A DNA stretch of 64,000 bases from Oscillatoria princeps RMCB-10 (GCA_019359235.1 JAHHHT010000012.1:67648-131647); one strand, 5' to 3'; positions 30,659 to 50,393 are shown, counted from the stretch's first letter. Numbers and translations are program-made. The notes: generated by a model not told the origin, from the sequence alone.

Positions 30659-33325
30659 ATGAAGAGAAGTAAGCAAATGGCTGAGAATCCAACAGAAATT
30701 CCTCTGACTGCGAGTGGGGTAATTCGCCTGAAGCCCCAGCAGTACATTCACGTTCTGGACAACAACACCGGCGTCACGAGGCTGGAGGTTGGCCCGCAAA
30801 CGATTACGCTTCGCGATCACGAGCGCCTGGTATTAAAACCCTCACCGATGATAATTGTGCCGCCCCGGCATTATTGTGCGGTTGCCAATCCGGTTCTCCG
30901 CAATGATGAGGGCACGCCAGTTGCCGATCAGCACGGCCAAATTAAACTGCGGTACGGCGATCGGGAAATTCGCTTAGCGCAAGATCCTTTTCCCCTGTAT
31001 CCGGGCGAAGCGATCGAGCAAGATGTGACGCGCTTGCACGTCGTGGAGACAAATCAAGCGCTGCGTCTGAGAGCGATTCGGGATTTTTCGGATGCAGTGA
31101 CGGTGACGGTTGAGGGAGAAATTGAGACTCAAACTATCAGCCGTACAGCCGGCGATGAGTGGCTGTTTGAAGGACCGGGAACTTATCTGCCCCGGGTGGA
31201 AGTGGAGGTACTGGAAACTGTGGCGGCTACGGTGATTAAGCCGAACCAAGCTTTGCGCTTGCAGGCGCGACAGAATTGCACGGACCGGCTGGGAAATCGC
31301 CGCCGTGCCGGTGAAGAGTGGCTGGTGAGAGAAGAGGGTGCCTATTTGCCCGGGGTTGATGAAGAAGTGATTGCCATTGTTAAGGCTTACGTTCTGACAG
31401 AGCGGAAAGCGCTGCACTTGAGGGCGAAACGCACTTTTACTGATATTTTTGGCCGGCAGCGGAAAGCTGGCGATGAGTGGTTGGTGACAATCTCGGATGC
31501 AGAGATACACATTCCGGATGTGTATGAAGAAGTGGTGGGAGAAGTTGGGATTACGACTCTGGGCGATCGGGAGTGGTGTATTGTGGTCGATCCGATTGGT
31601 GAGGATGGCAAGCCGCAATTAGGAAAGCGAGAGGTTCGCCAGGGAAGAGCGTCTTTTTTCTCGCATCCGGGAGAGTCGCTGGAAGGGGGCATTCAAAAAG
31701 TCTATGTTCTCGGCGAGCGGGAAGCGCTTTTGCTGCGAGCTAAAGAAGCTTTCAGTGAGGGGGAGGGCGAGAGTGCGGTGGAGCGCCAGCCGGGGGATTT
31801 GTGGATGATTTCCGGTCCGCGAGATTATATTCCCCGCGTGGAAGTGGAAGTGGTTGAGCGGCGCAAAGCGATTCCTCTGGATAAGAATGAAGGCATTTAT
31901 GTGCGGGATATTCAGACGGGTGAACTCAGGCTGGTGAGCGGCCCCCAGGCGTATATGCTCAGCCCGTATGAGGAACTTTGGGAGAAAGAGCTTCCGCCGG
32001 TTGTTGAGGAGTTTCTGGCGCAAAAAACCGATCCTGTTTCTGAGCGCAGCCAGAGTCACAGTACAGGGAGTTCCGAGGCAGGTCAAAAATCTGTAGCCTC
32101 GAAACCTGTCGCTAAACGGGATAAAACTAGGGCGGTTGTTTTTCACGTCCCGCAAAATGCAGCGGTGCAAATCCACGACTATAAAAACCGAAGCGCCCGC
32201 ACTGTATTTGGCCCGGATTTGGTGATGCTGGGACCTGATGAAGCATTTACGGTGCTGAGTTTGTCAGGTGGCAAGCCTAAGCGACCGAATGTGATTAAGT
32301 CGCTGGCTATATTGCTGGGCCCTGATTTTATGACGGATATCTTCATCGTGGAAACATCAGATCACGCCCGACTTCAGATGCAGCTGTCGTATAACTGGTA
32401 TTTTGATGTGGATAGAGCGGATGAGCAAGCTGCTGCAAAACTGTTTCAAGTTCCGGATTTTGTGGGGGATGCTTGCAAGGCGATTGCGTCTCGGGTGCGG
32501 GGCGCTGTGGCGGGGGTGCCATTTGACGAATTTCACCGGAATTCTGCCCGGATTATTCGGGAGGCTGTGTTTGGAACGGATGCGGAAGGTCACGTTCGCG
32601 ATGAATTCCGCTTTCGGGCGAATAATTTGGTGATTACGAACATTGACATCCAGTCTGTGGAGCCGGTGGATGAGCGGACTTTGTCCAGTCTGCAAAAGTC
32701 GGTTCAGATTGCGATTCAAATTACGACGGATGCTCAAGAAGCGGCGGCGAAGCGCGATGCGGAGCGGATTGAGCAAGAGGCTAAAGCTCGACTGGAAAGG
32801 CAGATTATTGTCGATCGGGGTGCGGCTGAGGTAGAGCGGAAAAAGCTGCTGGAATTCCAGGCTGAAAATGCGGCGATTCAGTCTACGGGGCAAGCTATTG
32901 CGGAGGCGAGGGCGAAGGCGGAAGCGGCTCGGATTCAAGGGGAATTGGCTGTGAATATGGCGCAGCAAGAAGCGGAGGCGGCTCGGATTCGGGCTGAAGC
33001 TGATTTGGCGCAGCTGAGAGCGCGTCAGGAGGCGGAGTTGGCTCACCAGCAGGCGCTGGTTAATCTGGAGATTGACAAAGCGGATCGCATGGCTGAAATT
33101 ACCAGTGCGGAATTCGCGCAGAAAGTTGCGGCAATTGGGCCGGAAACGCTGAAAGCTATGGCTCAAGCGGGACCGGAAATGCAGGCGCGGCTTCTGCAAA
33201 GTCTTGGCATTCAGAGTGTGCTGATTACTGATGGGAAAAATCCGATTAATCTGTTTGGCGCTGCTAGCGGTTTGATCGGTTCGGTGACGCCGCCGCTGAG
33301 TTCGGAGCCGCAGCGCGGGGGTTGA
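30659..33325 (+). CDS. Major vault protein (MVP) homologue, full length.
   Basis: The 888-aa product is collinear with, and highly similar to, the eukaryotic MVP consensus. The N-terminus reads …YIHVLDNNTGVTRLEVGPQT…VPPRHYCAVANPV…IRLAQDPFPLYPGE. The repeat domains read AGDEWLFEGPGTYLPRVEVEV…AGEEWLV…AGDEWLVT. The shoulder reads IPLDKNEGIYVRDIQTGE…FGPDLVMLGPDEAFTVLSLSGGKPKRP…FVGDACKAIASRVRGAVA. The cap-helix reads …EAAAKRDAERIEQEAKARLERQ…GPEMQARLLQSLGIQSVLITDG. The alternative start is the Met at 30677. Confidence 0.9.
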   Translation: MKRSKQMAENPTEIPLTASGVIRLKPQQYIHVLDNNTGVTRLEVGPQTITLRDHERLVLKPSPMIIVPPRHYCAVANPVLRNDEGTPVADQHGQIKLRYGDREIRLAQDPFPLYPGEAIEQDVTRLHVVETNQALRLRAIRDFSDAVTVTVEGEIETQTISRTAGDEWLFEGPGTYLPRVEVEVLETVAATVIKPNQALRLQARQNCTDRLGNRRRAGEEWLVREEGAYLPGVDEEVIAIVKAYVLTERKALHLRAKRTFTDIFGRQRKAGDEWLVTISDAEIHIPDVYEEVVGEVGITTLGDREWCIVVDPIGEDGKPQLGKREVRQGRASFFSHPGESLEGGIQKVYVLGEREALLLRAKEAFSEGEGESAVERQPGDLWMISGPRDYIPRVEVEVVERRKAIPLDKNEGIYVRDIQTGELRLVSGPQAYMLSPYEELWEKELPPVVEEFLAQKTDPVSERSQSHSTGSSEAGQKSVASKPVAKRDKTRAVVFHVPQNAAVQIHDYKNRSARTVFGPDLVMLGPDEAFTVLSLSGGKPKRPNVIKSLAILLGPDFMTDIFIVETSDHARLQMQLSYNWYFDVDRADEQAAAKLFQVPDFVGDACKAIASRVRGAVAGVPFDEFHRNSARIIREAVFGTDAEGHVRDEFRFRANNLVITNIDIQSVEPVDERTLSSLQKSVQIAIQITTDAQEAAAKRDAERIEQEAKARLERQIIVDRGAAEVERKKLLEFQAENAAIQSTGQAIAEARAKAEAARIQGELAVNMAQQEAEAARIRAEADLAQLRARQEAELAHQQALVNLEIDKADRMAEITSAEFAQKVAAIGPETLKAMAQAGPEMQARLLQSLGIQSVLITDGKNPINLFGAASGLIGSVTPPLSSEPQRGG

Positions 33326-33329
33326 GTTT

Positions 33330-34100
33330 TTGGGTGGGGTGCTCTGTGGCGTTCCCCACCCTACTGGGTGGGGGGGTGGGTTTCCTCGTTCCGGGGCGGG
33401 CACGGTGCCACCGGCACTACTGCCTGGGAACGAGGAAACTTGGGGGTGGGGTTTGAGCCCCCTATTAATTGGCCAACAGCATCTTTCAATCGCCGGGGAG
33501 CTGTAGGGGCGGCCCCCCGTGGCCGCCCTCCTGACACCGATGCACGGGAGCATGCGCCTTATGACATTACCATCCCGCAATTGTGCAATGCCCTTTTGCT
33601 AAGTGTTCCGGAAGGTGCGTTGCCCCAAGAGGGCAACACACCCTACTGTGCTTGGCGTCCCTTCACGGGGGCGGTTTATTATAGCAATCGACAGTCAGTT
33701 GAGGACAGGGCATCTCACTTTCTAGTAGGGACAGGGACAGGCGGGACGCCTGTCCTACGCCTTATATATGAGCGTTTCTCAGATTAGTGTGCTACGGAGA
33801 AACTCGGTAGGGGCGGTCGTGCCGCACCGCTCCTACGAAATCGGGTTTATGGGCCATAGTACATTAAACTGAGAACCGCTATATGTAGGTACGGCGTAAG
33901 CGTTGCGGCGCGTCAGCGCTACTCCCTAGCCTCATGCCCTCAAGGTAAACATGTCCGTGCCCTGGGTGGGTACTGCTATAACCCACCCTACTAGGTTGGG
34001 GAGGTGGGTTACGCTGTGGCGTTCCCCACCCCACTCTATATAGTGCGCTCCGCACGCGCACCTGTTCAGTCCAGAATCAGGCAAAAGTCCCAGCTGCAGC
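33330..34100. repeat. Repeat-rich intergenic block containing several SDR hairpins.
   Basis: The block contains ggtggggtgctctgtggcgttccccaccctac, and ggtgggttacgctgtggcgttccccacccc at ~33985-34030. The motif gggccatagtacattaaactgagaaccgctat at ~33850 also occurs at 1040-1075. Confidence 0.7.
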
Positions 34101-34578
34101 ACAGGACTCGATAAATCGCGCCGGTACAAACCAACCGCGCTAAAACGCGCACGGCTTTGACGCAATAATAAAAAGCGCGTATACATACAGCATTACGCGA
34201 TAAATCGCCTCTTTCCACGAACGAGGGGGATTTATCGCGTCTGTACAAAAGGCTCCCCCGCTGATAATGCAAAAGTGGGATGCTCCCTAATTTACCTCGC
34301 GATCAACAGAGCGCTGCCCTGAATTCGCCACAAGTATGCGGCTATCGGCCCGCTACCGACTCAATAAACAACAAAAACGACATGCGCTTATGGGAATTTG
34401 CTTTGTAATAAAAATCACTTTTTTTCTTAAGTTTTTTTTTATAGGAATTTTCCCGATCTAGGTATAATCTTGGAACTGTGAGCAAATTGACTGACTTAGC
34501 TAACGAATCCCGCATTCACAGCTAAGCCCGAACGCTCGATTTTGCCTGTACTATCGCAGCAAAACTTGCTGAATTACT

Positions 34579-36021
34579 ATGGTTACAATCGCAACAACGA
34601 ACCGGCAGCAACAAAGTATTGACATCCAAGTTGCTCGCAACCTAGCGATCACGACGAATACCGTCCCCCAAATGACGGGGATTACACCCCGGTGGCTGCT
34701 GCACTTCCTGCCGTGGGTGCAAGTGCAATCGGGAACGTACCGCGTCAACCGCACCAAAGTCGTTCTCAAACCAACTCCAAAAGTTAAGGTCAATAACAGC
34801 AACGGCTCCTCGAATGTGGCCCCTGAAGACCTGCGGACAATCCCCATCCTGTCAGACCTCGCTACTTCTGACGCTGCCGCGCTCGCCAATCGCTTTCAAA
34901 GCCAGTCTTTTGGGATGGGAGAAACTATAGTTGCGGAAGGTCAAAAAGACGACAAATTCTATATCGTCGCTCAAGGGAAATTAGAAGTGTTAATGCGGGG
35001 CGAACAAGGCTACCCCTTGCGCCTTGCCGTTCTGGGTGCGGGAGACTACTTCGGCGAAGTCGATCTCTATCAAGATCTGCCCAGCGACGCCACTGTTCGC
35101 ACACTGACTCCCTGCCGGTTGCTGACGCTTTCCAAAACCTGCTTCGACCAAGTGGCGAGTCAATCCCCACAAGTGCTGGAAAACTTGCGGCAGGCGGTTG
35201 AAAATCGCATGCGGTTAAAGACGCTCCTCAACCTGTACGGGGAAGAAAAAGTTGCGCTCGCCGCTGACTACGAAGGCGAAACTGAGTTACCCGCCTCGTT
35301 TGTGGACTACGAAAACGAACCGCAAGAGTACGAACTGAGTATCGTCCAAACTATTTTGCGCGTTCACACCCGCGTCGCCGACATTTACAACGAGCCGATC
35401 GATCAGTTGCGCGAACAGCTTCGCCTGACTGTCGAAGGCATGAAAGAGCAGCAAGAATGGGAAATTATCAACAACCCTGCCTTTGGCTTGCTGAACGCCG
35501 CCGCGCCCTCAATGCGCGTTCAGCCCCGCTACGGTGCGCCGACTCCCGACGATCTCGATGAAATGCTGGCTCGCGTGTGGAAACAACCGGCTTTCTTCCT
35601 GGCTCACCCACGGGCGATTGCAGCTTTCGGACGCGAATGCACGCGCCGGGGCGTTCCGCCGGTAACTGTGAATCTGTTCGGCTCTCCTTTCATAACCTGG
35701 CGCGGTGTGCCAATTGTGCCCTGCGACAAATTGGAAGTGCAAAATCGCACCGGCAACCCCGAAGGTCCAGGCAAAACGAATATCCTGCTCGTGCGTGCCG
35801 GTGAAAAAGAACAAGGCGTTGTCGGCTTGCATCAAATGGGCATTCCCGGCGAACAAATGCCCAGCCTGTCTGTGCGGTTCATGGGCATCAACATCCAGGC
35901 GGTGGCTTCTTATTTGATGACGCTGTACTTCTCCTGCGCTGTCTTAACCGATGACGCTCTAGCCGTGCTGGAAAACGTGGAGGTGGGATACTACCATGAC
36001 TATCAATATGCCAGCGCATAA
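34579..36021 (+). CDS. Family 2B encapsulin shell protein (HK97-fold nanocompartment) with an inserted cNMP-binding domain.
   Basis: The 480-aa product has an internal CRP-like cNMP-binding domain reading …[28 protein letters not shown]…[11 protein letters not shown]…[11 protein letters not shown]. The C-terminal HK97-like region reads [21 protein letters not shown]…NILLVRAG…[14 protein letters not shown]. The stop overlaps the next gene by 26 nt. Confidence 0.8.
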
Positions 36022-37915
36022 CGGTAAAAACGGACATGGGACGGCTCAAGACGTGCCATTACCTCCCACCGGCGACAGTGGGATGTTTGACCCGATCTCT
36101 GTAGAATCGATGGCGAATCAGTTTTATACCGCTGTGCCGAATGCTCTCAGCGTGGCAGCCCCAACCGGCACCCAGCCTGCAATTGACAATATCGGGACTG
36201 TTCCGCAGCCTGAGAGGAATAGTTCTGGCATGAGTGGGGTGGCATTAGTCGGGAACTCCGCACCGGCATCAGCCCTCAGCGAGGAAGCATTAACCGCAAT
36301 GGCTAAACAGTTGCGCTCGCAGATGGTTCCCGCTAATTTGGAAGCTAACCTGTTTCAGGCATTCGCACAGATCAAACCCGCTGCCCCCTCGCAGGAAACG
36401 GCTGCGGCGCTGCCAACAACTTCGGCTTCCAGCAATGCCTTGAATGTGGAAGCTTTGAAAGAGGCGGCACAACAGCTGTACGCCCAGATTCCTCAGATTT
36501 CCCCCAGCGGAATTCCGGGCAATTCGATTGCCACGCCTCCAAAGCCAACTTCTATTTTACCGCTCAGCGAGCCAGATTTGCAAAGGGCTTTCGCGGATGC
36601 GGGAGCGCAAGCCAGCCATTCTCCGGTTCGGGAAACACCTCAGCCGTCGTTCTATTTCCTGTCTCCCCCAGCAGTGGAAAATCTGGGGTTAGAGTCTGGG
36701 GCTGTATTTGATGTCAGCGCCATCCGCAAAGACTTTCCGATTTTGCACCAGAAAATCAACGGCAAACCGCTGATTTGGCTGGATAACGCCGCCACAACTC
36801 AAAAGCCGCAAAGCGTTATCGATGCCCTGTCGCTGTTCTACCAGCGAGACAACTCCAACATTCACCGGGGCGCTCACACTCTGGCGGCGCGGGCGACGGA
36901 TGCTTATGAGGGAGCGCGGGAAAAGGTACAGCGGTTTATCGGTGCGGGTTCGGCGTCGGAAATTATCTTCGCACGGGGAACCACAGAAGCGATTAATCTG
37001 GTGGCGCAAACCTGGGGTCGCAAGTATATCCAGCCCGGAGATGAAATTGTTCTCTCGACGCTGGAACACCACGCCAATATCGTTCCGTGGCAGATGTTGG
37101 CGCAAGAGACGGGGGCAATTTTAAAGGTTATCCCTGTTAGCGATAGCGGCGAAATTATGCTGGAGGAATACGCCGGACTTCTCGGACCGCGCACTCGCAT
37201 TGTTGGGATTACGCAGGTTTCTAACGCTCTCGGAACAATTGTTCCAGTGCGGGAAATGACGCAAATAGCCCACCGGCACGGGGCAGTCGTCCTTGTTGAC
37301 GGGGCGCAGGCTGTTTCTCACATGCCGGTTAATGTTCAAGAGATCGGTTGCGATTTTTACACCTTTTCTGGTCACAAACTCTTTGCGCCAACGGGAATTG
37401 GTGTCCTGTACGGGAAACGGCAAATCCTGGAGGATATGCCTCCTTGGCAGGGTGGCGGCAGCATGATTCGCCATGTCACGTTCGAGAGAACGATTTACAG
37501 CGATCCCCCGGCAAAATTTGAAGCGGGAACGCCTAATATTGCTGATGCGGTTGGACTGGGTGCGGCGATCGACTATATCACCCGCCTGGGGATGAGCAAT
37601 ATCGAACGGTACGAGCACAAACTCACCGAGTATGCAATAGAACGCCTCGCGCAGATTCCGGGGTTGCGTCTAATTGGTACTGCACCTCACAAAGTAAGCG
37701 TGGTGTCGTTTATTTTGGATGACATCCCTGTGGAACAAGTTGGGCAGCGCCTCGCCCGAGAAGGGATTGCGGTGCGTGCAGGTCATCACTGCGCTCAACC
37801 GACGATGCAGCGGTATAATCTGACGGGTACGGTTCGGCCTTCGCTGGCTTTTTACAACACTTGTCACGAAATCGATACGCTAGTAGAAGTCCTGCGGACA
37901 ATTCGCTTCCGCTAG
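35996..37915 (+). CDS. SufS/CsdA-type cysteine desulfurase with a ~215-aa disordered N-terminal extension (the putative encapsulin cargo-loading domain).
   Basis: Residues 1 to ~215 are low-complexity and rich in Ala, Pro, Ser and Gln. They are followed by a class V aminotransferase/SufS core reading …[11 protein letters not shown]…HRGAHTLA…[13 protein letters not shown]…[17 protein letters not shown]…RAGHHCAQP, which supplies the PLP-binding lysine and the active-site Cys loop. Confidence 0.85.
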
Positions 37916-38157
37916 CTGGAATTGTCCGCACAAGGGGACAGCATAAATGTCCCCTCACCCACCCCAACTTTCTCGACCACAAGGGGAGAGGGGGAGCTGC
38001 TGCCTCGGATCTTTTTTAGCACAAATAAAGAGAGCATCAAGAAACCTGGTTTCTAGGAATACCCATGTTAGGCTTAATTGTGCCGGACTACTGTTCGAGT
38101 CCGAGCGGATCTCTGTTTTAGGGGAGGGGCGGGTTTATTAGAACCCTTCTCTATGGT

Positions 38158-38276
38158 GAGCATCCCGATTATGTAGGGGCGAAGCATGAGGGCGAATAAT
38201 CTCTCGGTCAAAACCAGCAATTGATAATCCTCAGGCTTCGCCCTCACCAGGGTAGTTTCAAAAACGGGATGCTCCC
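38158..38276. mobile_element. MITE-like element (copy 2), bounded by GGGAGCATCCC/GGGATGCTCCC.
   Basis: It is ~95% identical to the copy at 7522-7642. Confidence 0.75.
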
Positions 38277-38607
38277 TCTCTGTACCACACATATTTCGGG
38301 GGAACCCGCCCCTACAGATATAGAAAATCGGGAACGAACGGACACGATATTGTCCCGCTTTTCCTCAAGGCAGGGCAAGCTCCAAGGGAGCATTAGTAAG
38401 CAAGGTAACTCAAGTTGCTACCTACAAGTCTAAGCATCTAGATCCCCCCAAACGGGGCGGGCAAGGTGCCACCGGCACTACAAAGGGGGGCTTTGAGAAT
38501 GTCCCCCCCCTTTTGAAGGGGGGCTAGGGGGGGATCTCCACGCTCGTACTGCTAAGTAGCAACTTGGGTTAAGATAAGTGGACTGATTTACTGGAGGTAA
38601 TCGGAAA

Positions 38608-39453
38608 GTGCTGATCGAGAACGCTCAACCCACGACTGAAGTAGCCCAAAACAGCCAGACAGCCAAGTATCCTGACGCCTCCTCACGAGGAGAGAGTTTT
38701 CGCCCAGTCAAAGCTAACCCTATCGGTGTTTTAATCGCTGATTGGCAAACGATTTATCAGCGCGATCCTGCCGCCCGCAACTGGCTGGAGGTGCTGTTGT
38801 GCTACCCTGGATTGCACGCTCTGTGGTGCCATCGCGTAGCGCACTGGCTGCACGGTTTAGGCATTCCTTTTCTGCCTCGTTTCCTGTCTTTCTTAAGTCG
38901 GTTATTCACGGGAATTGAGATTCACCCGGGTGCTAAAATTGGCAAAGGGGTGTTTATCGACCACGGGATGGGAGTGGTGATCGGCGAGACTGCAGTTGTC
39001 GGCGACTATGTGCTGATTTATCAGGGAGCGACCCTGGGGGGGACGGGAAAGGAAAAGGGCAAGCGCCATCCGACACTAGGGAATAATGTCGTTGTGGGAG
39101 CGGGGGCGAAGGTACTGGGCAATATTAAGATTAGCGATAACGTTCGCATCGGTGCGGGTTCGGTTGTGCTGCGGGATGTGCCGAGCAACAGTACGGTGGT
39201 GGGGGTTCCGGGGCGCATCACTCGTCTGAATGGGTTGAGGGCTGATGCTCTGGAGCATAACAACCTGCGGGATGTGGAAGCTGAGGTGATTCGCGCTTTA
39301 TTTGAACGGGTGAAGGAGCTTGAGAAACAGGTTGTGGAGTTGCAAGGTCAATTCAATTTGCCCCCCATGCCGGTGGATAGCGAAAAAACGGAGAGCGAAA
39401 AGTGTTATTCTAATGGGGTGATTGAAGACTTTCTCGATGGGGCTGGAATTTAA
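38608..39453 (+). CDS. cysE: Serine O-acetyltransferase.
   Basis: The product has hexapeptide left-handed beta-helix repeats reading [44 protein letters not shown]…[30 protein letters not shown]. The CysE N-terminal helical domain is present. Confidence 0.8.
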
Positions 39454-39471: not shown

Positions 39472-39900
39472 ATGACAGAGTTTAACTGGGTTCGCGGCTT
39501 GCTGGGCGGTTTGCTCATCGGCACGAGTGCGACTGTCCTGCTGGCATTCAACGGTCGGATCGCTGGGATTAGTGGAACGCTCAACAGCGCCCTCAGTTCA
39601 GCGTCTGATGGAGTCTGGCGCTGGCTTTTTCTGGGCGGACTGCTGGCGGGGGGGGCACTCTATGAATATGTCCTCGCACCGGCACCGACACCGGCATCTG
39701 AGTTCGCTCCCTGGGCGATGCTCGCCGGCGGCTTTCTGGTGGGCTTCGGGACGCGCATGGGTAATGGCTGCACCAGCGGACATGGGGTGTGTGGGTTGGG
39801 CAGGCTTTCGCTTCGCTCGCTGGTGGCAGTTCTGACTTTTTTGGGCACTGCAATCGTCACGGTTTTCGTGACGCGCCATGTGCTTTTATGGTCTACCTGA
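39472..39900 (+). CDS. YeeE/YedE-family (Sulf_transp) membrane protein, half A.
   Basis: The product has four TM segments and the conserved motif GTRMGNGCTSGHGVCG. Confidence 0.75.
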   Translation: MTEFNWVRGLLGGLLIGTSATVLLAFNGRIAGISGTLNSALSSASDGVWRWLFLGGLLAGGALYEYVLAPAPTPASEFAPWAMLAGGFLVGFGTRMGNGCTSGHGVCGLGRLSLRSLVAVLTFLGTAIVTVFVTRHVLLWST

Positions 39901-39912
39901 GTGAGGGAAAGA

Positions 39913-40003
39913 AGCGATTTATCGCGGATATACAAGAGGGGGAGACGCGATTCATCGCGTCTCTACAAGAGGGGGTAGACGCGATTTATCGCGTCTCTAC
40001 AAG
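39913..40003. repeat. Three tandem ~30-33-bp units, each containing the palindrome GACGCGAT-TT-ATCGCGTC.
   Basis: The tandem array reads agcgatttatcgcggatatacaagaggggg, then agacgcgattcatcgcgtctctacaagaggggg, then tagacgcgatttatcgcgtctctacaag. Related copies lie at 34108-34130, 34196-34208 and 34225-34252. Confidence 0.8.
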
Positions 40004-40005
40004 AT

Positions 40006-40455
40006 TTGGATTTGGGAAAGAATATGAAACAAAATCTGGTTGCTTTGATTTCAGGTGTGCTGTTTGGTCTGGGTTTGGGTCTTTCCCAGATGATTGACCG
40101 AGAGCGGGTTATCGGTTTTTTGGATGTCACCGGCGTTTGGGACCGGACGCTGCTGTTCGTACTGGGCGGGGCTGTTGGGGTGACGGTGATTGCGTTCCGT
40201 TTTGTGTTGCGCCTCCCGCACCCATTATATGCGGAAAAGTTCTACGTTCCCACTCAGAAAAATATCGACAGAAAGCTGATATTGGGGGCGGTTATTTTCG
40301 GTGTCGGTTGGGGAATTGCTGGATACTGCCCCGGACCGGGCCTCACGGGGCTGGTGCTGGGCATCTGGAATCCCGTGTTGTTTGTAATCGCGATGATTGC
40401 CGGTTCGCTGACTTACAAATGGTTTTCGACTCGGTTTGAGGGGGAAATGGAATAA
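40006..40455 (+). CDS. YeeE/YedE-family membrane protein, half B.
   Basis: The product has four TM segments and the motif GVGWGIAGYCPGPG. Confidence 0.75.
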   Translation: MDLGKNMKQNLVALISGVLFGLGLGLSQMIDRERVIGFLDVTGVWDRTLLFVLGGAVGVTVIAFRFVLRLPHPLYAEKFYVPTQKNIDRKLILGAVIFGVGWGIAGYCPGPGLTGLVLGIWNPVLFVIAMIAGSLTYKWFSTRFEGEME

Positions 40456-40600
40456 AAGAATTAGAGTTGTGGGGTGCGTTACCGCTCGGAACGGCACCCT
40501 ACTGATTCTCGTTACCAGCCGGAGCCTGGGAACGAGGAAAGGGAGAGGAAAGAGGGAAAGGGAAAAAATCGATATGTAGCGTTTTTTAAGGAAAAGGTAT

Positions 40601-42754
40601 ATGAACGATGTCGTTCTGAACCTGACTATTTATCCCTGTGATATTGCCATAATTGGAGGCGGCTTTAGCGGCTGTCTGGTTGCAGCAAATCTTTTGCGGG
40701 ATGCAACCGTGCCGGTGGTGATTAAGTTGATTGAACGGAGTCCGGAAGTAGGCAGAGGAGTGGCTTACGGGACGCAAATATCCTGTCATTTGCTTAACGT
40801 GCCGGCGGGGAAGATGAGTGCGTTTGCGGATGAACCGGCTCACTTCCTGAACTGGTTGCAAAGGAACGGGTATGCTGACAGTACAGCATCCTCTTTCATC
40901 CCGCGTCAGGTTTATGGGGATTATGTGCGGGCACTGTTGAAGGAAGCGGAAACAAATGCTCGGGCTGGTGTGCGGTTGCAGCGGATTGTGGGGGAAGCGG
41001 TTGCGCTGGAAACGACAGCAACCGGCATCAGGGTGTACCTGAAAGACGGTGAGTGTTTGTGCGTTCAAAAGGCTGTGCTAGCGCTGGGAAATTTCCCGGC
41101 ATCTCTGCCCGAACCGCTTGCCGGTCTGGAGAACTTCGACCGCTATCTGAGAGATGGCTGGGAAGCTGATGCGGTTGCCGGTCTGAATCCAGACGATTCT
41201 ATTCTGGTGGTGGGCACCGGCTTGACGATGGTCGATGCGGTTGCTACTTTGCACCAAAAAGGATTTCAGGGGAAAATATATGCCGTCTCGCGTCACGGTT
41301 TGATGCCTGCCGGTCACAAACTAACAAGTCATTATCCAGCATTTATTGAGGCAGATACTGCACCAATAAATGCGCGAGAATTACTTCATTTAGTGCGTCT
41401 AGAAGTGCGAGCGGCGGTGGCGCAGGGGCACGACTGGCGTGCGGTAATCGACGCACTCCGCCCAGTCACGAAACAACTTTGGCAAGCACTTCCATTGCAG
41501 GAACAAAAGCGATTTTTGCGCCACGTCAAGGCTTACTGGGAAGTGTGCCGGCATCGCATTGCTGAAGAAATGGCAAATCTGCTGGATGCGACAGTGCAGT
41601 CGGGTCAACTGAAGCATTATGCCGGTCGGATTCAAAGCTGTCGGGAGTTGGAGAATCGGGTGGCTGTGACGATTCGGGAACGGGGGAAGCAAACGGAGAA
41701 AGTGTTCTTGGTCAGCCGGATTCTGAACTGCACCGGCTCAAACTGTAACTATCGCAAGTTGCAGCACCCCTTGCTCGCCAGCTTGCAAGAACAAAAGCTG
41801 ATCCGCTTCAACGAGCTGTCAATCGGAATCGACACGGCTCCAAACGGTGCTCTAATCGATGCAAACGGAAAGGTATCGGAATTGCTGTACACTTTGGGAA
41901 CACCCCGCAAGGGCAATCTTTGGGAAACTATAGCCGTTCCCGAAATTCGGGTTCAGGCTGCTTCTCTGGCGCAGGAACTGCTAAAATCCCTCAATCCCAA
42001 AGCCGATACTCCTGTTGCGGGGGATTGGTGTGCTGGAAATCTATCGCTCGCGTTACAGAAATCTACTATGCTATTGCGTCAACTGTTCGATAAAGAATCG
42101 AGTACCTACACTTATCTGATTGCCGATTTCTCTACCAAAGCAGCCATCCTAGTCGATTCTGTATTGGAACAAGTGGAACGGGATCTCCAGCTGTTGCGAG
42201 AGTTGGATCTCACCCTGCGCTATTGCCTGGAAACCCACATCCATGCCGACCACATCACCGGCACAGACAAGCTGAGGACACTTACGGGCTGTCTGGCTAT
42301 TTTGCCGGAAAATACTGAGGTGACTTGTGCGGATGGCTATATGGCGGATGGGAAGATTTTGCAACTGGGAAGCTTACAGATCCGCGCCATTGCCACCCCC
42401 GGTCATACTGACAGCCATAATGCTTATCTTATCGATGGCATTTACCTGTTAACCGGAGATGTGCTGCTGATCCGGGGTTGCGGTCGTACTGACTTTCAGA
42501 ATGGCAATGCCGGTTTGCTGTATGATGCTGTAACGCAGAAGTTATTCACGTTACCGGATGACACTTTGGTGTATCCCTGTCACGATTATAAGGGGCAAAC
42601 AGTGTCTACTATTGGGGAAGAAAAGTGCTGGAATTCCCGGTTGGCGGGGCGCAATCGCAGCCAGTTCATCGAGCTAATGAATAATCTCAATCTGCCCTAT
42701 CCCAAAAAGATGCTGGAATCTGTATCCGCCAATCAGCGCTGCGGTCAAATTTAA
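40601..42754 (+). CDS. Fusion protein with an N-terminal FAD/NAD(P)-binding (NAD_binding_9-like) domain and a C-terminal ETHE1-type persulfide dioxygenase (metallo-beta-lactamase fold).
   Basis: The N-terminus has a Rossmann GGGFSG dinucleotide motif. The C-terminus has HIHADH (HxHxDH) and TPGHTDSH metal ligands and the PDO-specific GRTDFQ motif. It is 717 aa. Confidence 0.75.
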   Translation: MNDVVLNLTIYPCDIAIIGGGFSGCLVAANLLRDATVPVVIKLIERSPEVGRGVAYGTQISCHLLNVPAGKMSAFADEPAHFLNWLQRNGYADSTASSFIPRQVYGDYVRALLKEAETNARAGVRLQRIVGEAVALETTATGIRVYLKDGECLCVQKAVLALGNFPASLPEPLAGLENFDRYLRDGWEADAVAGLNPDDSILVVGTGLTMVDAVATLHQKGFQGKIYAVSRHGLMPAGHKLTSHYPAFIEADTAPINARELLHLVRLEVRAAVAQGHDWRAVIDALRPVTKQLWQALPLQEQKRFLRHVKAYWEVCRHRIAEEMANLLDATVQSGQLKHYAGRIQSCRELENRVAVTIRERGKQTEKVFLVSRILNCTGSNCNYRKLQHPLLASLQEQKLIRFNELSIGIDTAPNGALIDANGKVSELLYTLGTPRKGNLWETIAVPEIRVQAASLAQELLKSLNPKADTPVAGDWCAGNLSLALQKSTMLLRQLFDKESSTYTYLIADFSTKAAILVDSVLEQVERDLQLLRELDLTLRYCLETHIHADHITGTDKLRTLTGCLAILPENTEVTCADGYMADGKILQLGSLQIRAIATPGHTDSHNAYLIDGIYLLTGDVLLIRGCGRTDFQNGNAGLLYDAVTQKLFTLPDDTLVYPCHDYKGQTVSTIGEEKCWNSRLAGRNRSQFIELMNNLNLPYPKKMLESVSANQRCGQI

Positions 42755-42769
42755 GCTGAGTAGCTGAGT

Positions 42770-42855
42770 GGGGTGGGTTACGCTGTCGCCAACCCACCCT
42801 ACTTTTCTTTGGGGGGGTGGGTTACGCTGTCGCTAACCCACCCTACTTTTCTTTA
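42770..42855. repeat. Direct duplication of a ~39-bp SDR hairpin between convergent genes.
   Basis: The unit ggtgggttacgctgtcgc(c/t)aacccaccctacttttcttt occurs twice. Confidence 0.85.
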
Positions 42856-45800
42856 GACAAAATCAAGTTGAGGACGTTCAGCTCACTGGAAGTGAGGAGG
42901 TATTTGTCGGTAAAGATTTTTTCCCTCATTTCTTCTAGGCTGTAGCTCCTGAAGATAAGAAAGGGGAATTCCCCGTACTTGCGACCGATGGGCAGGGTGT
43001 TGTATGCTGGGTAAAGGGAGTGGACATACTTGGACATAAGCGTGCGAAATTCGGTGTCTTCTTCCTCTTCTGGATTGGTTTTGAAATAGTCCCGCATCGC
43101 CTCACCGGCAATAAAGGCAAACAGTGGCAAAGCATAATACTGATCGTCTCTCTGGCTGCTCTGCTCAAACCACTGAGTTCGGCTGACTTCGCCGCTGAGC
43201 AATTTCACCAGCTCCATCGCGCCACCCCTGATGGCGGTGCGCAGGTTTTCCGGGTACTCCTGGCGGTGGCTAATCGCCCGCATTTTGGCGATCAGTTCGG
43301 GGGTGGCGTGCTTTCTGATCTGCTGTTCCAGTCGAATTTGGTAAGTTTCTTCCAGGGTTTTCTCACCCACCGGCACCACCAGCAAGCTGCCACTAATGTG
43401 CCCCGCTTCTATGTTACCATAATCTAGCAATTTGTCAAGGCTTCGGCACATCTGGGAAAACTGCCGGTTGAACAGCTCCCGCAAGGAAAGATAGGAAAGC
43501 TTTTCAGAAACCCGGTTTCTTGGAGAAACCGGGTTTCTCGATGTGGCTGGATTGAGCAAGGTGAATTCGGCGCGGCTCAGAATTTCCTGCAAACTGGTAT
43601 AAACCTGCTGGAGCACCAGGTAGCTGGGACGACGGCGGTGTTCGTTCTTCAGTTCTCGGATTAGATTAGTCATCTGACCGGTAAAGGTATCACCGGCTGC
43701 TGACACAGACTTCCCGCCGATAGGAATCATCATAAACTCTTTCCTCCCCAGACGCCAAGCCCCCACAATCCGCGTCATCACGGAAACCTTGAGAATCAGC
43801 AAGATATTTAACAAACTTAAGACGCTCTCCTGGATGGAAAGCTGGCGCTCTTTGGCGTAGTCCTCAAAGGAAGTATCGCGCTCTTTGGGGTAATATAGCG
43901 CTCTATCGTACAAGTAAAAAATCAGCTCCTTGTCTTCGCCGTCGAGAGTCTTGCTTTCCCCATTTTCCCGATATTCCCCACGCGCTCTGTAGATAACCTG
44001 GATGACTTCCATCAGGTTTCTCTCCACCTGGAAGCGGGGAATTTCCGCCAGGATGCGCTTCGCCTTGGGAAAAGACAGCCCCCGACTCGCGGAAGATGTC
44101 ATAAAGACTACCTTGACATGATTCTTGTGCTGGTGTATGTTTTTCTTAGCCTCCTCGGAGAGATTGGCGTGGATTTCCAGGTAGTCCTGATTTTCCGTAA
44201 ACTCTCCCCACTGCTTCCGAAGTTTCTCAATTAGCTCCTGCAATCTCTTTTTGTCCTGGATGTACACCAGCAGCTGACTGGCGTCTGGATTTTCCAAGTA
44301 GGCGCTGATGTCCTCGGCTATCTTTGACTGTACGGCTTTCACCAAGCTGTTCCCTTTGTCTGAAACCGCCTCCTCGCTGTATTTCAAGCACTCGACAAAC
44401 ACCTTATAGGTGATTGACAAACTGCGAGCGGGATAGGAGTTGGCGTTGATGGCGATAGCACCGGCTCTCTTAAACGGAAACCGCGACACAGAAAGAGGCG
44501 CTGCGGTTTGTTTCGCCATCCGGAAATAGATTTTGTCCGGTTCCGGTGAGGCTTCCGAGAGGTGCTGGGTGATAACTTCTGGCTCAACAATAGAGGCGTC
44601 GGCGACAATGACTTTGGTGTTGAAGCCGTGCTGCGCTAGCTGAAAGCGGTGCAAAAATTGGCTGATTCCTTTCAGGAAGTTGACGCCGCTATCGTCGCCG
44701 GTGATTTCGTCTACCATGATAAAGACGTGCTTTATCCTTTGCGAGATTTTGCGCATCTCGGAGCCAATGACTTTCCCCTCGCGCTTATTGTAAGCACGTT
44801 TGAAGATTTTGTCAAGGTGATCTAGGGTGTTGGCTCCATTGGGGGTGATCCGCAAAGACTGGATGGAGACTGTGGCGACAATATTATTGTATTTCCTGCT
44901 GTCGATGAGGGCGTGGATTCCTTCGCAGATGCTAGCTAGTACGCCGGCGGTTCGCTCGCCAATATCTCGAAATGTGTCTTCGGTTTCCCTCTGGAGGCGC
45001 TTCTGGCGCGTGTTCGTAGTAGGGGCTTTAGCCCCTCCCGTAGCGTTGAGGAAGTGGACGGACTTGGCGGTAAAATCATCCTGGCGCTGATTAGAATGAT
45101 ACTCGACTGTGGGTTTTCCGCCGTTTTCTTTGATGATGCTGGCGTTGGTGTTGATGCAAAACAGCCGGCTGTCGGACAGTTTGTCGGTGTCTGGGGATTT
45201 GAATTTCTCGATGATGTCTAGGTTAACTTGTTTGCGGGGACTGACGTAGAAGAACAAAAACCCCTCGTCGATGTGAGCTTGCAGAAAGTTGGCGATGGCT
45301 GTGGTTTTGCCAATTCCGGGATTGCCGGTTAAAAATATATAGGTATCGTCCGAAACCAGCGCCTTTCTGATAAGTTCGGCGTGAGCGTCTCTCAGGTGGG
45401 ATTTGGGACTGATGTCTAGCTGCGCTGCTAACTCAGCCGGTATAATATCTATAGAGTTGAGAAAGCCATCCATCCGCTCGGTGTGAAGGACTTCTGCAAT
45501 TCCGTCCTCTCTGAGGCTGAGAGGTTTTTCTGACAGCGACTCGACGAACTTCTTCCCCTCATTAAAACTCCGAGTGGCATTTTGCTGGATAATCCCTAAA
45601 ACCTGCCGGCGAGCGGTGTTGATTTCCTGTTTATCACGTTGATTTTTGTAAATCTGCGCACAAGTTGCCAGTACGTTTAAGTTTTCCGGGCGCAGGGACA
45701 TGGCGCTGATGCCCCGGTCACTGTACCCAACTGCATTAAACACCACCGGCGCACTTTCTGTCAAGATGCCGGTTTGTCGCAGAAATCCATAGAAGCTGTG

Positions 45801-46580
45801 AGCGTAGGAAGCCGCTTGGATTAACTTTGCGCTTTCTTTGTCCTCGCGCTTAAAGGCGGTGAAGTACCGGTGCAACTCTTCGGAAAACTCCACCCCCAAG
45901 TTGCCGGTGGAGCCGGTGTCTATCCGCAGTTTGGAGAAAAAGCTTTTGGATCGCAAATAGCTAATCTCGCGCAGCAACATGCGCCGCTGATTTTCCAGTT
46001 CTTTGTCTTCCAAGTCTAAGAGGTCTTGCGCGGACTTGACAGAAAATATGGATAAGTCTAGGGAAAGAATCCTGTACTTATCTCTGTTTTTCAAGAGCAT
46101 CAGGGTGTCCGCTTTCAAAAACTCTCCCTTAGTCTTGTGCCGGTGAATCACCGTATCCAGGTTATCTAAAGGGCCAAACTGAGACAGTAACTCGCCATAT
46201 TCTTGCTCCTCAGTCTTGGGATATGTTTTGATGCTATTGGCTTCGCAAAAGCTGCACTGGTAATACATAATTTCGGTATTTGCCAATTGCTTATCGTCCC
46301 AACCGGCAGCTTTGATGTACTCCCAGAAGAAGTTTAACCCAGAGAGGAAGCCTTTCTGGATCATGTACAGGCTCCACTTTTCCACAATCCCGATATTCTC
46401 AGTGCTGATCAGCTCTTCATCCTCAACCATCCGCTTCAGCATTTCGGGGAAGTGCAAGTGCTGCAAATCGTGCCGGTACAGGGTGCCAAAGTTATGCTTT
46501 ATCTGGTGGTGTTCGATGAAGGCGAGGATGCCGGTGTTGAACCCGACCTCAAAGAGCCGGCCTAAATTTTCTGCTATCAT
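42843..46580 (-). CDS. Large P-loop NTPase with an SF1 (Upf1/UvrD-like) helicase-like core. Its function is unknown.
   Basis: The 1245-aa product has Walker A at FLTGNPGIGKTT, Walker B at FIMVDEITGDD, motif V-like at VVFMTSSASRGLSFP and motif VI-like at IQVIYRARG. I could not assign the ~470-aa N-terminal region or the ~400-aa C-terminal region. It contains an in-frame SDR insertion at 43505-43539. Confidence 0.7.
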   Translation of the reverse strand: MIAENLGRLFEVGFNTGILAFIEHHQIKHNFGTLYRHDLQHLHFPEMLKRMVEDEELISTENIGIVEKWSLYMIQKGFLSGLNFFWEYIKAAGWDDKQLANTEIMYYQCSFCEANSIKTYPKTEEQEYGELLSQFGPLDNLDTVIHRHKTKGEFLKADTLMLLKNRDKYRILSLDLSIFSVKSAQDLLDLEDKELENQRRMLLREISYLRSKSFFSKLRIDTGSTGNLGVEFSEELHRYFTAFKREDKESAKLIQAASYAHSFYGFLRQTGILTESAPVVFNAVGYSDRGISAMSLRPENLNVLATCAQIYKNQRDKQEINTARRQVLGIIQQNATRSFNEGKKFVESLSEKPLSLREDGIAEVLHTERMDGFLNSIDIIPAELAAQLDISPKSHLRDAHAELIRKALVSDDTYIFLTGNPGIGKTTAIANFLQAHIDEGFLFFYVSPRKQVNLDIIEKFKSPDTDKLSDSRLFCINTNASIIKENGGKPTVEYHSNQRQDDFTAKSVHFLNATGGAKAPTTNTRQKRLQRETEDTFRDIGERTAGVLASICEGIHALIDSRKYNNIVATVSIQSLRITPNGANTLDHLDKIFKRAYNKREGKVIGSEMRKISQRIKHVFIMVDEITGDDSGVNFLKGISQFLHRFQLAQHGFNTKVIVADASIVEPEVITQHLSEASPEPDKIYFRMAKQTAAPLSVSRFPFKRAGAIAINANSYPARSLSITYKVFVECLKYSEEAVSDKGNSLVKAVQSKIAEDISAYLENPDASQLLVYIQDKKRLQELIEKLRKQWGEFTENQDYLEIHANLSEEAKKNIHQHKNHVKVVFMTSSASRGLSFPKAKRILAEIPRFQVERNLMEVIQVIYRARGEYRENGESKTLDGEDKELIFYLYDRALYYPKERDTSFEDYAKERQLSIQESVLSLLNILLILKVSVMTRIVGAWRLGRKEFMMIPIGGKSVSAAGDTFTGQMTNLIRELKNEHRRRPSYLVLQQVYTSLQEILSRAEFTLLNPATSRNPVSPRNRVSEKLSYLSLRELFNRQFSQMCRSLDKLLDYGNIEAGHISGSLLVVPVGEKTLEETYQIRLEQQIRKHATPELIAKMRAISHRQEYPENLRTAIRGGAMELVKLLSGEVSRTQWFEQSSQRDDQYYALPLFAFIAGEAMRDYFKTNPEEEEDTEFRTLMSKYVHSLYPAYNTLPIGRKYGEFPFLIFRSYSLEEMREKIFTDKYLLTSSELNVLNLILSKEK

Positions 46581-50300: not shown

Positions 50301-50393
50301 ATTCAGACTCCGCAAAGCTCTTAAAATATTTTCCAGCAAATCGCTGTAGTTCACGGCGACTAAATCGCCGTCCCCTGGCTGCAAGATGTTCAC
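47382..50393 (-). CDS. Large hypothetical protein, the first gene of the cassette.
   Basis: The 1003-aa ORF has no recognisable catalytic motif by eye. Its composition is coding-like throughout. Confidence 0.65.
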   Translation of the reverse strand: MNILQPGDGDLVAVNYSDLLENILRALRSLNPFRISGDRRKLLVDIDEFAASLATSAQVQNPLESSLGVRSASVNFSRGFREGFPGKVREIRECLREKLESALGETGSIQELVAGLITRDLQSFPGNRGQLGFAYDFGKRYDNLEKQKLSLEFDRSGSESLLKFHKLTIAVRNINQFQDSLRRGLENYIEREVPWESEEDKSDLYSALDRLEIEEYSDFYRLQEIVDTETLGKLKKEAKIAYLEYLVENIETQDSLGLIYLRDLLRRLRLIEEYISADRADAHYEVSYAGVTVNYKDAFSRAEALDSLPIIPIVGGYLGENTDRSGGEIQFVFGLKLKLAGKVQALGGDEVFDYNLDIISPESKKHQEEIADSSQRETFAARVLRRVFLYFFVFACDDPSAAGYTPSNDLNYDPVAAFDTRILPVLQGNDEGAKKKLFRNIVRGFNKYNVRDKISRVRELLRNFLDRQAILPTRTYPIQIAVRKGILNRDIDSMINGAFFGEVLGRNPKECLRYISIGGAHVDEDALCQLPASITVEDIRYFTAEEREKFSWEYDIKGISALPVAWVPKQEACWSVYTRNLQQNKLVLFPYDNRRLNEDNPNRLDTTQAFVYQFTWAVIAPICLNLLLENAPDNLFVPMVRLHEGDDENPFPLEKFLANLSKGLSHLLNEKCRCSSQGFRVKKLNEHTIRNGLSSLYSVLPKKFRFVEEFPTLEKLAIIIVSSVESDARTGNRNPKSRISNLLGEVASVTRQEDGTVRLEILKTFSDNDRNSRIYSDPPVLINTVDNLYREGYRHFLYIAQAPYSSTLHITRSQEEEELYFMSPRLIKELKGEREDIKIYPVFFDKYYVRKLKDPGVRSLYVSNTEQLTSLSSDPQQQAVVFFNLFNGITVGNKEERFYNGVVSYATLVNIYEGILDDMDIRQGLLDDTPLKADLLQYLTLFHFSRFERNSNISLKLDPYENIIGDDSFGKLSIFNHMREEIEFNALAFMTEIKKALIEEASR

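Follow-up and report, generated by a model that had tools for sequence, protein, structure and literature searches.

A probable Family 2B desulfurase encapsulin operon in Oscillatoria princeps and the degenerate nucleotide cassette of its shell

Does the CRP-like domain inserted into the shell of a desulfurase-carrying encapsulin act as a cyclic-nucleotide switch, or does it serve some other end? The question is raised by two overlapping genes in a 64,000-nt stretch of DNA from Oscillatoria princeps RMCB-10 (GCA_019359235.1 JAHHHT010000012.1:67648-131647), referred to here as the window; all coordinates are those of the whole window. A first-pass annotation of this DNA had read the pair as a Family 2B encapsulin shell, gated by cyclic nucleoside monophosphates (cNMPs), and a cysteine desulfurase cargo. 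Our analysis retains the gene pair and its class and departs from that reading over the nucleotide. We consider it very probable that the locus is an intact, chromosomal Family 2B desulfurase encapsulin operon in a filamentous cyanobacterium close to Oscillatoria sp. PCC 10802. In the inserted domain of the shell, the canonical nucleotide cassette is degenerate.

The shell and cargo genes

Both open reading frames (ORFs) are present where the first-pass annotation had placed them and encode proteins of 480 and 639 amino acids (Table 1). The shell protein scores 598.4 bits against the NCBIfam model NF041163 (encap_f2b; cutoff 400), with residues 13-470 covering model positions 1-449 of 450. It also matches the SrpI-like Pfam family PF19307 (residues 215-470, E 1e-116) and the cNMP_binding family PF00027 (residues 109-195, 67.8 bits). 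These hidden Markov model (HMM) searches, run over the whole shell gene, bear out the earlier description of an HK97-fold Family 2 encapsulin with a CRP-like insert. The protein matches the solved 2B shells of Streptomyces lydicus (9BJE and 9BIX) and Streptomyces griseus (9BHU) from end to end with E-values of 1e-124 to 1e-114, and the solved Family 2 shells that it matches comprise 6X8M, 8T6R, 8WOL, 9BHU, 9BJE and 9BIX, with the 2A shells aligning in two pieces. The closest homologue among the matches listed, at 91% identity, is that of Oscillatoria sp. PCC 10802.

The two pieces of the 2A alignments define the HK97 fold of the shell. Residues 6-62 align to SrpI 2-58 and to other 2A and 2B shells, and the N-arm and N-helix segment within them (residues 13-62) has a mean clade column conservation of 0.79. 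Residues 224-479 align to SrpI 60-307. Taken alone, the HK97 core scores 349 bits against SrpI (6X8M), 335 bits against the Acinetobacter baumannii shell (8T6R) and 294-271 bits against the Streptomyces 2B shells; on these bit scores it lies nearer to desulfurase-carrying 2A shells than to the 2B shells of Streptomyces. As judged from the alignments, the shell is an SrpI-like HK97-fold protein into which a CRP-fold domain of about 160 residues has been inserted. In a Foldseek search with the AlphaFold2 (AF2) model of the shell, the top hit was 9BHU, and SrpI and the A. baumannii shell came next; the model is weak, and so is this support. A neighbour-joining tree of HK97 cores, built from 50%-identity representatives, interleaves 2A-length and 2B-length proteins; because many of the representatives are fragments, we draw no conclusion from it on gain or loss of the insertion.

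The cargo protein scores 815.6 bits against the encapsulin cysteine desulfurase cargo model NF041166 (residues 27-635) and 574.8 bits against the SufS model TIGR01979, in agreement with the earlier reading of a SufS-type desulfurase. Aminotran_5 (PF00266) matches with an E-value of 6e-150, and the SufS/Aminotran_5 domain occupies residues ~238-637. The best sequence match in the PDB is 8KG1 (E 1e-175, residues 236-636), with SufS structures matching at 1e-137 or better. At such E-values, neither protein's match can be due to chance. The EHHAN motif, K461 and C599 are invariant among cargo homologues (alignment A2), identifying the cargo by sequence as a catalytically intact, SufS-type cysteine desulfurase dependent on pyridoxal 5'-phosphate (PLP).

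A long N-terminal domain precedes the catalytic domain. The first-pass annotation had described it as a disordered region of about 215 residues rich in Ala, Pro, Ser and Gln. Its composition (15.7%, 11.9%, 10.6% and 6.8% for these residues, respectively) and its disorder are as described, and its length is not, since it extends to about residue 237. Disorder-promoting residues make up 60% of this domain versus 48% of the catalytic domain, and the predicted local distance difference test score (pLDDT) of the AF2 model is below 50 over residues 1-96 and 105-237. The only short helices in the model, at residues 28-45, 96-124, 151-162 and 192-203, coincide with motifs conserved among cyanobacterial homologues. 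Within the five motifs and their surroundings, A40 and P48 (motif 1 region) and F221 (motif 5) are invariant in alignment A2. Compared by eye rather than with a published profile, motifs 1 and 5 resemble the two published SrpI-type cargo-loading motifs, LARLANEFFS and AASPYYFLDG (PMC8049743). When HMMs of the motifs were run against 79 cargo N-terminal domains, motif 1 was found in 25, motif 5 in 12, and the others in 2-6 loci. Motifs 2-4 thus appear essentially lineage-restricted; the N-terminal domains are highly divergent, and the motif search is not a strong test.

The shell and cargo genes are closely joined. The shell stop codon lies 26 nt inside the cargo gene, as had been claimed, and a Shine-Dalgarno-like GGAGGTG serving the cargo falls within shell codons E468-V469-G470, all three of which are invariant in alignment A1. 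The cargo start codon is backed by homologue N-termini of the form MT[IM]N... (alignment A2). Since the overlap comes with an internal Shine-Dalgarno-like sequence, coupled translation of shell and cargo is plausible. Planktothrix tepida, Floridanema and PCC 10802 have the identical 26-nt overlap, and in another cyanobacterial genome the overlap is 47 nt. Loci that encode relatives of the shell were scanned with one genome per species, 80 loci being taken of 591 confirmed, and gene order was counted over the 79 loci in which both genes could be scored, including five cyanobacterial loci added separately. The shell gene is followed directly by the desulfurase gene in every one of these, the two always overlapping (35 loci) or at most 200 nt apart (a gap of 0-50 nt in 25 loci and of 51-200 nt in 19). 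Related loci occur in Cyanobacteria, Planctomycetota, Chlorobi, Bacteroidota (many of them from rumen Prevotella), Actinomycetota and Proteobacteria.

Phage capsids are the ancestors of HK97-fold shells, and the two ORFs might be read as a prophage capsid remnant that lies by chance beside a housekeeping SufS. Both proteins pass curated equivalog models, the desulfurase carries an encapsulin-specific N-terminal domain with its motifs, and the pair is syntenic in all scorable loci. Annotation of the window ORFs revealed no phage genes nearby, the neighbours being housekeeping and sulfur genes. The model scores, together with the synteny, effectively refute a prophage origin.

The pairing of a 2B shell with a desulfurase is not new. 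The type is already catalogued and named by the NCBI annotation pipeline: 199 Family 2B desulfurase operons from 9 phyla were counted by Andreas and Giessen in 2021 (PMC8346489), and about 9% of 2B systems have desulfurase cargo (Andreas and Giessen 2024, PMC11550324). Serine O-acetyltransferase and rhodanese are enriched accessories of 2B desulfurase operons (PMC8346489), the former (CysE) being noted as an enriched accessory component in PMC10836720 also. Our literature search found no experimental characterisation of a 2B desulfurase system. The locus is a sound re-identification of a catalogued operon type, adding a cyanobacterial example and no new biology; the residual interest is that the desulfurase branch of Family 2B has yet to be studied by experiment, and that a conserved pocket signature in the inserted domain makes the ligand question testable.

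The inserted CRP-like domain

The insertion, whose presence sets 2B shells apart from 2A shells, sits at the junction of SrpI residues 58/60; published work puts the cNMP-fold insert of the 2B family in the E-loop (PMC8346489). Its CRP-like beta-barrel (CBD) is modelled by AF2 with pLDDT values of 76-90 over residues 71-140 and 72-89 over residues 151-210, and Foldseek matches it to the cyclic-nucleotide-binding domains of CRP, PKA and CNG with root-mean-square deviations of ~2-3 Å.

According to the first-pass annotation, the compartment is nucleotide-regulated: the CBD would bind cyclic AMP (cAMP) or cyclic GMP, and the nucleotide would gate access of substrate or cargo to a sulfur-mobilising compartment. 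PF00027 is indeed matched over threshold, and the FGE of the cassette is kept (G159-E160) at the head of the string FGE...RTLTPCRLL that had been quoted in support (residues 158-183). In a BLASTP alignment to Escherichia coli CAP, G159-E160 correspond to G71-E72, S169 to R82 and D170 to S83. In CAP, R82 and S83 are the ligands of the cAMP phosphate. Mutation of R82 abolishes cAMP binding, domains that lack this Arg are insensitive to cAMP, and an acidic residue beside the missing Arg disfavours a cyclic phosphate. The role of CAP R82 in cAMP binding is confirmed in PMC11550324, which also reports on the S. griseus shell Sg Enc (EshA), the sole Family 2B shell tested for cAMP binding. Differential scanning fluorimetry, cAMP-agarose, enzyme assays and cryo-EM at 20 mM cAMP revealed neither binding nor any effect on Sg Enc (PMC11550324). 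With S169-D170 in place of Arg-Ser and no cAMP binding by the tested relative, the CBD of the window shell is very unlikely to bind cNMPs, and the proposal of nucleotide gating is highly improbable. The accompanying remark that no mechanism has been described for the inserted domain is correct.

The Arg of the cassette is described as replaced by Trp in essentially all 2B domains (PMC11550324), and a phmmer alignment pairs S169 of the window shell with W176 of Sg Enc. Of 212 desulfurase-type 2B shells, 169 have Ser at position 169, 26 have Arg there and none has Trp; position 170 is Asp in 114. The published generalisation does not hold in the desulfurase-type clade. Conservation within this clade reaches 97% for R148, 93% for E160, and 80% each for S169, T172 and R174. 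Residue 148 is Thr or Val in the Streptomyces structures, and position 174 covaries with the cassette, being Arg where 169 is Ser and Gln or Thr where 169 is Arg. Desulfurase-type 2B domains have a conserved pocket signature of their own, R148, E160 and P-S-D-x-T-V-R, unlike the Trp of Streptomyces. This is a modest new point. The region of the pocket does not resemble a relic in decay.

A minority of the clade (~12%, the 26 shells with Arg at position 169) keeps the canonical cassette FGEIALI..P-R-T-A-[TN]-V. Among them are P0043, P0045-P0048, P0050, P0054, P0072, P0079, P0096 and the shell of locus L002. These relatives, unlike the window shell, could bind cyclic nucleotides. In favour of the gating proposal, the P-R-T-A cassette (for instance in P0043, P0050, P0096 and L002) means that nucleotides may be bound by some relatives or by the ancestor.

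If cNMPs are set aside, the pocket signature may point to a different small molecule. The CBD could sense sulfur status through a ligand such as O-acetylserine, N-acetylserine, sulfide, thiosulfate or an adenylated sulfur compound, and tune cysteine entry or sulfur release via the exterior domains or the two-fold pores. The signature is kept across distant phyla in the desulfurase-type clade only, most strongly at R148 and E160, and the switch at position 174 follows the identity of residue 169. By homology, R148 would lie two residues before the cAMP-contacting Ser62 of CAP, on the same strand. Known ligands of CRP-fold domains include 2-oxoglutarate, haem and chlorophenolacetate (PMC11550324). 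Set against this, no other folded part of the shell is as poorly conserved overall as the CBD, and Sg Enc showed no conformational change under any condition (PMC11550324). We rate a sulfur-status sensor as a serious candidate that is nonetheless doubtful.

Equally doubtful, in our estimate, is a ligand-free CBD that acts as a structural or docking module on the exterior, for example for a sulfur acceptor or for shell stability. The CBDs of Sg Enc sit over the two-fold pores, immobile and with no detected ligand (PMC11550324), and planctomycete relatives of the window shell add an exterior-type, CysE-like tail (described below) that suggests partner recruitment. A purely structural module leaves the conserved polar pocket of R148, E160, S169-D170 and R174 unexplained, and the geometry of the Streptomyces shells may not transfer to the window shell, since the hairpin that anchors the CBD is acidic in Streptomyces and basic here. 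A conserved acidic metal-binding subdomain is described as preceding the CBD of Sg Enc (PMC11550324). The window shell has an equivalent segment (residues 59-93), in which the GDG, xEF and DG elements of that hairpin become PTP, KVKV and NG; by charge count, it holds 5 basic and 3 acidic residues versus 4 basic and 6-8 acidic in Streptomyces shells.

Overall, we favour an exterior module that would bind some ligand other than a cNMP, or a partner, because the cNMP cassette has been lost but a clade-specific pocket signature has been kept. A more specific form of this idea is that desulfurase-type 2B shells are a distinct functional subclass in which the cNMP cassette has been swapped for an R148/P-S-D-x-T-V-R pocket that detects a metabolite reporting sulfur status and so controls the entry of cysteine or the release of sulfur; this we think rather unlikely as a whole. 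If true, it would make the compartment a ligand-regulated sulfur store and provide the first identified effector for any encapsulin shell. The desulfurase-type clade is in any case a cleaner test case for the CBD than Streptomyces, having Ser-Asp and an additional Arg rather than Trp, and the minority of close relatives with a canonical cassette provides matched pairs for comparison. The pathway context of cysE, a thiosulfate-type transporter and sulfonate genes narrows the candidate ligands.

The tail mentioned above is a C-terminal extension of the form ...[FY]xxG[LS]GI that follows a conserved VEVGYYHDY in about one fifth of desulfurase-type 2B shells. It was counted in 21 of 96 shells in genomes and in 22 of 120 cluster representatives, in all cases at planctomycete-type loci (L004, L005, L007-L014, L016, L017, L019-L025, L029 and L031; 22 proteins within P0062-P0119). 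In two-shell operons only one paralogue carries it, and the window shell itself lacks it. Operon-linked serine acetyltransferases end alike, including the CysE of the window (...DFLDGAGI). The CysE tail, with its terminal Ile, inserts into CysK's active site, and the GxGI-tailed planctomycete shells may likewise dock or sequester CysK. Our literature search found no encapsulin paper that mentions CysK.

Proposed function and comparison with known systems

The most likely role of the locus, by analogy with its relatives, is that of a T=1 shell that would convert cysteine to alanine and sequestered sulfur within a sulfur-acquisition cluster. Homology to SrpI, the A. baumannii shell and Sg Enc predicts that 60 shell subunits would assemble into an icosahedral particle, ~25-28 nm in size, that bears the inserted domains on its exterior, as in the 60-mer of Sg Enc with its external CBDs (PMC11550324). 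The overlapping genes would help co-production of shell and cargo, and the disordered domain would bind the luminal wall in a multivalent manner through its short amphipathic motifs, packaging the desulfurase during assembly. The encapsulated enzyme would then turn L-cysteine into L-alanine, and with no acceptor protein at hand the abstracted sulfur would build up in the lumen in elemental or polysulfide form. Precedents exist for several of these steps: sulfur starvation induces SrpI, whose cargo is loaded through an N-terminal domain (PMC8049743), and the A. baumannii 2A shell stores elemental sulfur (PMC10836720). Induction of the window operon under sulfur limitation would be expected; we place the system in a sulfur-limitation response because of the downstream cysE and YeeE-like pair and the sulfonate genes around a relative's operon.

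Several points weigh against this account. What is proposed here on assembly, loading, T number, sulfur storage and induction is carried over from relatives. The AF2 model of the shell, made from a 25-sequence alignment, is poor (mean pLDDT 53) and confident only in the CBD, and the cargo score against NF041166 is barely over the cutoff of 800. CBD conservation is 0.61 versus 0.80 for the HK97 core, which also fits a purely structural role. Finally, the annotated cluster and the larger ORFs of the window include no rhodanese or cysK that might re-mobilise stored sulfur.

Compared with the catalogued 2B desulfurase operons (PMC8346489; NF041163 and NF041166), the locus has the same shell architecture, cargo, disordered domain and CysE accessory, and nothing essential differs. 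It has one shell gene, where many planctomycete members have two; its cluster lacks the rhodanese of the class and adds a split YeeE-like transporter and a fusion of a flavin adenine dinucleotide (FAD)-binding part to a metallo-beta-lactamase (MBL) fold downstream.

The closest solved HK97 core is that of the 2A system SrpI/CyD from Synechococcus elongatus PCC 7942 (6X8M; Nichols et al. 2021, PMC8049743). Both systems have the same type of cargo, a disordered loading domain (~225 residues in SrpI/CyD) with the same two motifs, and a cysE-like neighbour, and with its overlapping SufS-type cargo gene and long, motif-bearing loading domain the locus has the SrpI/CyD-like architecture that the first-pass annotation had recognised. 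SrpI lacks the CRP-fold insertion. SrpI is plasmid-borne, in an srpGHI cluster; the window operon stands among chromosomal housekeeping genes and, unlike SrpI, has no cysK-like gene adjacent.

The 2A desulfurase encapsulin of A. baumannii 118362 (8T6R; Benisch et al. 2024, PMC10836720) is likewise homologous in core and cargo. In this system the acceptor-free desulfurase has been shown experimentally to deposit elemental sulfur in the lumen, and the cargo binds discontinuously through five short, partly conserved, linker-separated loading motifs (PMC10836720). Five linker-separated motifs are common to this cargo and that of the window. The A. baumannii shell has no inserted domain, and its four-gene operon includes a rhodanese and belongs to a proteobacterial pathogen rather than a cyanobacterium.

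Full-length homology, including the CRP-fold insert, is found on comparison with the Streptomyces shells, Sg Enc (9BHU; PMC11550324) and the two-component S. lydicus shells (9BJE and 9BIX). The cassette Arg is gone in both Sg Enc and the window shell, and cargo is loaded through a disordered N-terminal domain in Sg Enc and, by analogy, would be in the window. The cargo of Sg Enc is a terpene cyclase, 2-methylisoborneol synthase, whereas that of the window is a desulfurase. Trp stands in the cassette in Streptomyces where the window shell has Ser-Asp, R148 is Thr or Val there, and the Ca-binding hairpin reads GDGRVEF..DG in Streptomyces and PTPKVKV..NG in the window. According to its authors, the large open two-fold pores of Sg Enc may not suit small-substrate systems (PMC11550324).

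Operon surroundings

Features of the operon and its downstream genes are collected in Table 1.

Table 1. Features of the operon and its downstream neighbours, in window coordinates.
Feature	Position	Strand	Details
Putative -10 box TATAAT, within AGGTATAAT	34463..34468	+	~110 nt upstream of shell start; T-rich tract before; tentative
Family 2B encapsulin shell gene	34579..36021	+	480 aa; NF041163, PF19307, PF00027 matches
N-arm / N-helix segment of HK97 fold	34615..34764	+	aa 13-62
Insert not present in 2A shells: basic hairpin segment, beta-barrel of CRP type (CBD), linker	34765..35247	+	aa 63-223
Degenerate phosphate-binding cassette	35050..35109	+	aa 158-177; G159-E160 kept; S169-D170 replace Arg-Ser/Thr
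HK97 core: rest of E-loop, P- and A-domains	35248..36018	+	aa 224-480
Shine-Dalgarno-like GGAGGTG for cargo	35980..35986	+	9 nt before cargo ATG; sequence reading
Shell/cargo gene overlap, 26 nt	35996..36021	+	shell stop TAA 36019-36021; cargo ATG 35996
Cysteine desulfurase cargo gene, with N-terminal cargo-loading domain	35996..37915	+	639 aa; NF041166, TIGR01979 matches
Disordered cargo-loading domain (predicted)	35996..36706	+	aa 1-237; five short conserved motifs
Cargo motif 1, 10 residues	36101-36130	+	aa 36-45; LARLANEFFS-like
Cargo motif 2, 14 residues	36281-36322	+	conserved in alignment A2
Cargo motif 3, 14 residues	36446-36487	+	conserved in alignment A2
Cargo motif 4, 11 residues	36569-36601	+	conserved in alignment A2
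Cargo motif 5, QPSFYFLSP	36641-36667	+	aa 216-224; AASPYYFLDG-like
Type II (SufS-like) PLP desulfurase domain	36707..37912	+	EHHAN aa 357-361
PLP-Lys461 in SGHK	37367-37378	+	invariant in alignment A2
Catalytic Cys599 in GHHCAQP	37781-37801	+	invariant in alignment A2
Serine O-acetyltransferase CysE	38608..39453	+	TIGR01172 250 bits, cutoff 210.65; C-terminus ...DFLDGAGI
Sulf_transp/YeeE-YedE-like membrane protein	39472..39900	+	PF04143; ~140 aa
DUF6691 membrane protein	40006..40455	+	PF20398; ~140 aa
FAD/NAD(P)-binding and MBL-fold fusion (GloB/persulfide-dioxygenase-like)	40601..42754	+	NAD_binding_9, Lactamase_B

Upstream of the shell, the window shares a conserved AGGTATAA-like block, AGGTATAA(T), with three other cyanobacteria (P. 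tepida, Floridanema and Oscillatoria sp. PCC 10802), and this may be a -10 box. Since a consensus promoter scan gave no full sigma-70 -35/-10 pair upstream of the shell on the plus strand, we only infer this box. A terminator scan gave terminator-like matches no commoner than in shuffled sequence, and an Rfam scan of the whole window placed no riboswitch or other RNA element near the operon.

In roughly one related locus in four, CysE adjoins the pair of shell and desulfurase genes. The YeeE-like and DUF6691 proteins behind it (39472..40455) are probably a split sulfur-compound transporter. PCC 10802, two Methylobacterium loci and the P0031 cyanobacterial genome also have both of them next to the operon; one spirochaete locus has a partial Sulf_transp match. 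The fusion protein that follows matches the NCBIfam models GloB and Blh weakly, below cutoff, and is a possible accessory gene whose membership of the system is uncertain. PCC 10802 lacks, at this position, the 2.27-kb segment that contains it (40504..42769). The FAD part of the fusion has homologues, at 37-38% identity, that adjoin such operons in two planctomycete loci (L004, 5089-6468; L008, 6704-8056) and a Polyangiaceae locus (L069, 13515-14762), which hints at a recurrent association with 2B-desulfurase operons. In Floridanema aerugineum (L084, 1..20827), the 2B-desulfurase-cysE operon is set among genes of the organosulfur/sulfonate-utilisation type, with SsuD-, SsuE- and SsuA-like members. 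They encode FMN reductases and a luciferase-like monooxygenase, binding proteins of the NMT1/SsuA-like kind with an ABC transporter, and an acyl-CoA-dehydrogenase-like protein, and fit a sulfur-starvation regulon.

Otherwise the window consists of ordinary cyanobacterial chromosome, with serS, pheT, Ser/Thr kinases, a zinc ABC transporter, and WD40 and TPR proteins. An 888-residue major vault protein (MVP) homologue (30659..33325) lies 1.25 kb upstream of the shell on the same strand. It is full-length: four Vault repeats are accompanied by Vault_2/3/4 and MVP_shoulder, and the C-terminal coiled coil is rich in Ala and Glu. Oscillatoriales are already known to have such homologues (PMC3762200; bioRxiv 10.1101/872010). 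The adjacency of vault and encapsulin genes is kept only in the near-identical PCC 10802 (94% amino acid identity) and is absent from the P. tepida, Floridanema and P0031 loci; on these grounds we rejected a functional link, and the adjacency is probably coincidental. PADLOC, run on the vault protein and the FAD/MBL fusion together with the large flanking ORFs, gave nothing significant.

Two intergenic stretches are longer in the window than in PCC 10802, by ~640 nt between the vault and shell genes (33366..34002) and by ~525 nt between the desulfurase and cysE genes (38055..38579). GC-rich palindromic repeats, GGGTGGGTTACGCTGTGGCG...CCCACCC, mark the segment boundaries, including those near 40470..40503 and 42770..42812; one 18-nt stretch of the repeat is exact at 33344-33361 and 34014-34031. 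The ORFs 33368..33787 and 32357..33580 (minus strand) are spurious and read through the palindromic repeats. Two large ORFs lie on the minus strand further downstream. One, of 1003 residues (47382..50393), has no Pfam or PADLOC match; the other, of 1245 residues (42843..46580), has only weak P-loop/STAND and Helicase_C matches and is 90% conserved in PCC 10802. A group II intron occupies 21746..23620 on the minus strand, with an Rfam domain V/VI match at 21746..21823 and a reverse transcriptase/maturase/HNH ORF at 21841..23052. The RVT_N part of its protein is in a separate ORF (23141..23620), and the intron protein may be split or frameshifted.

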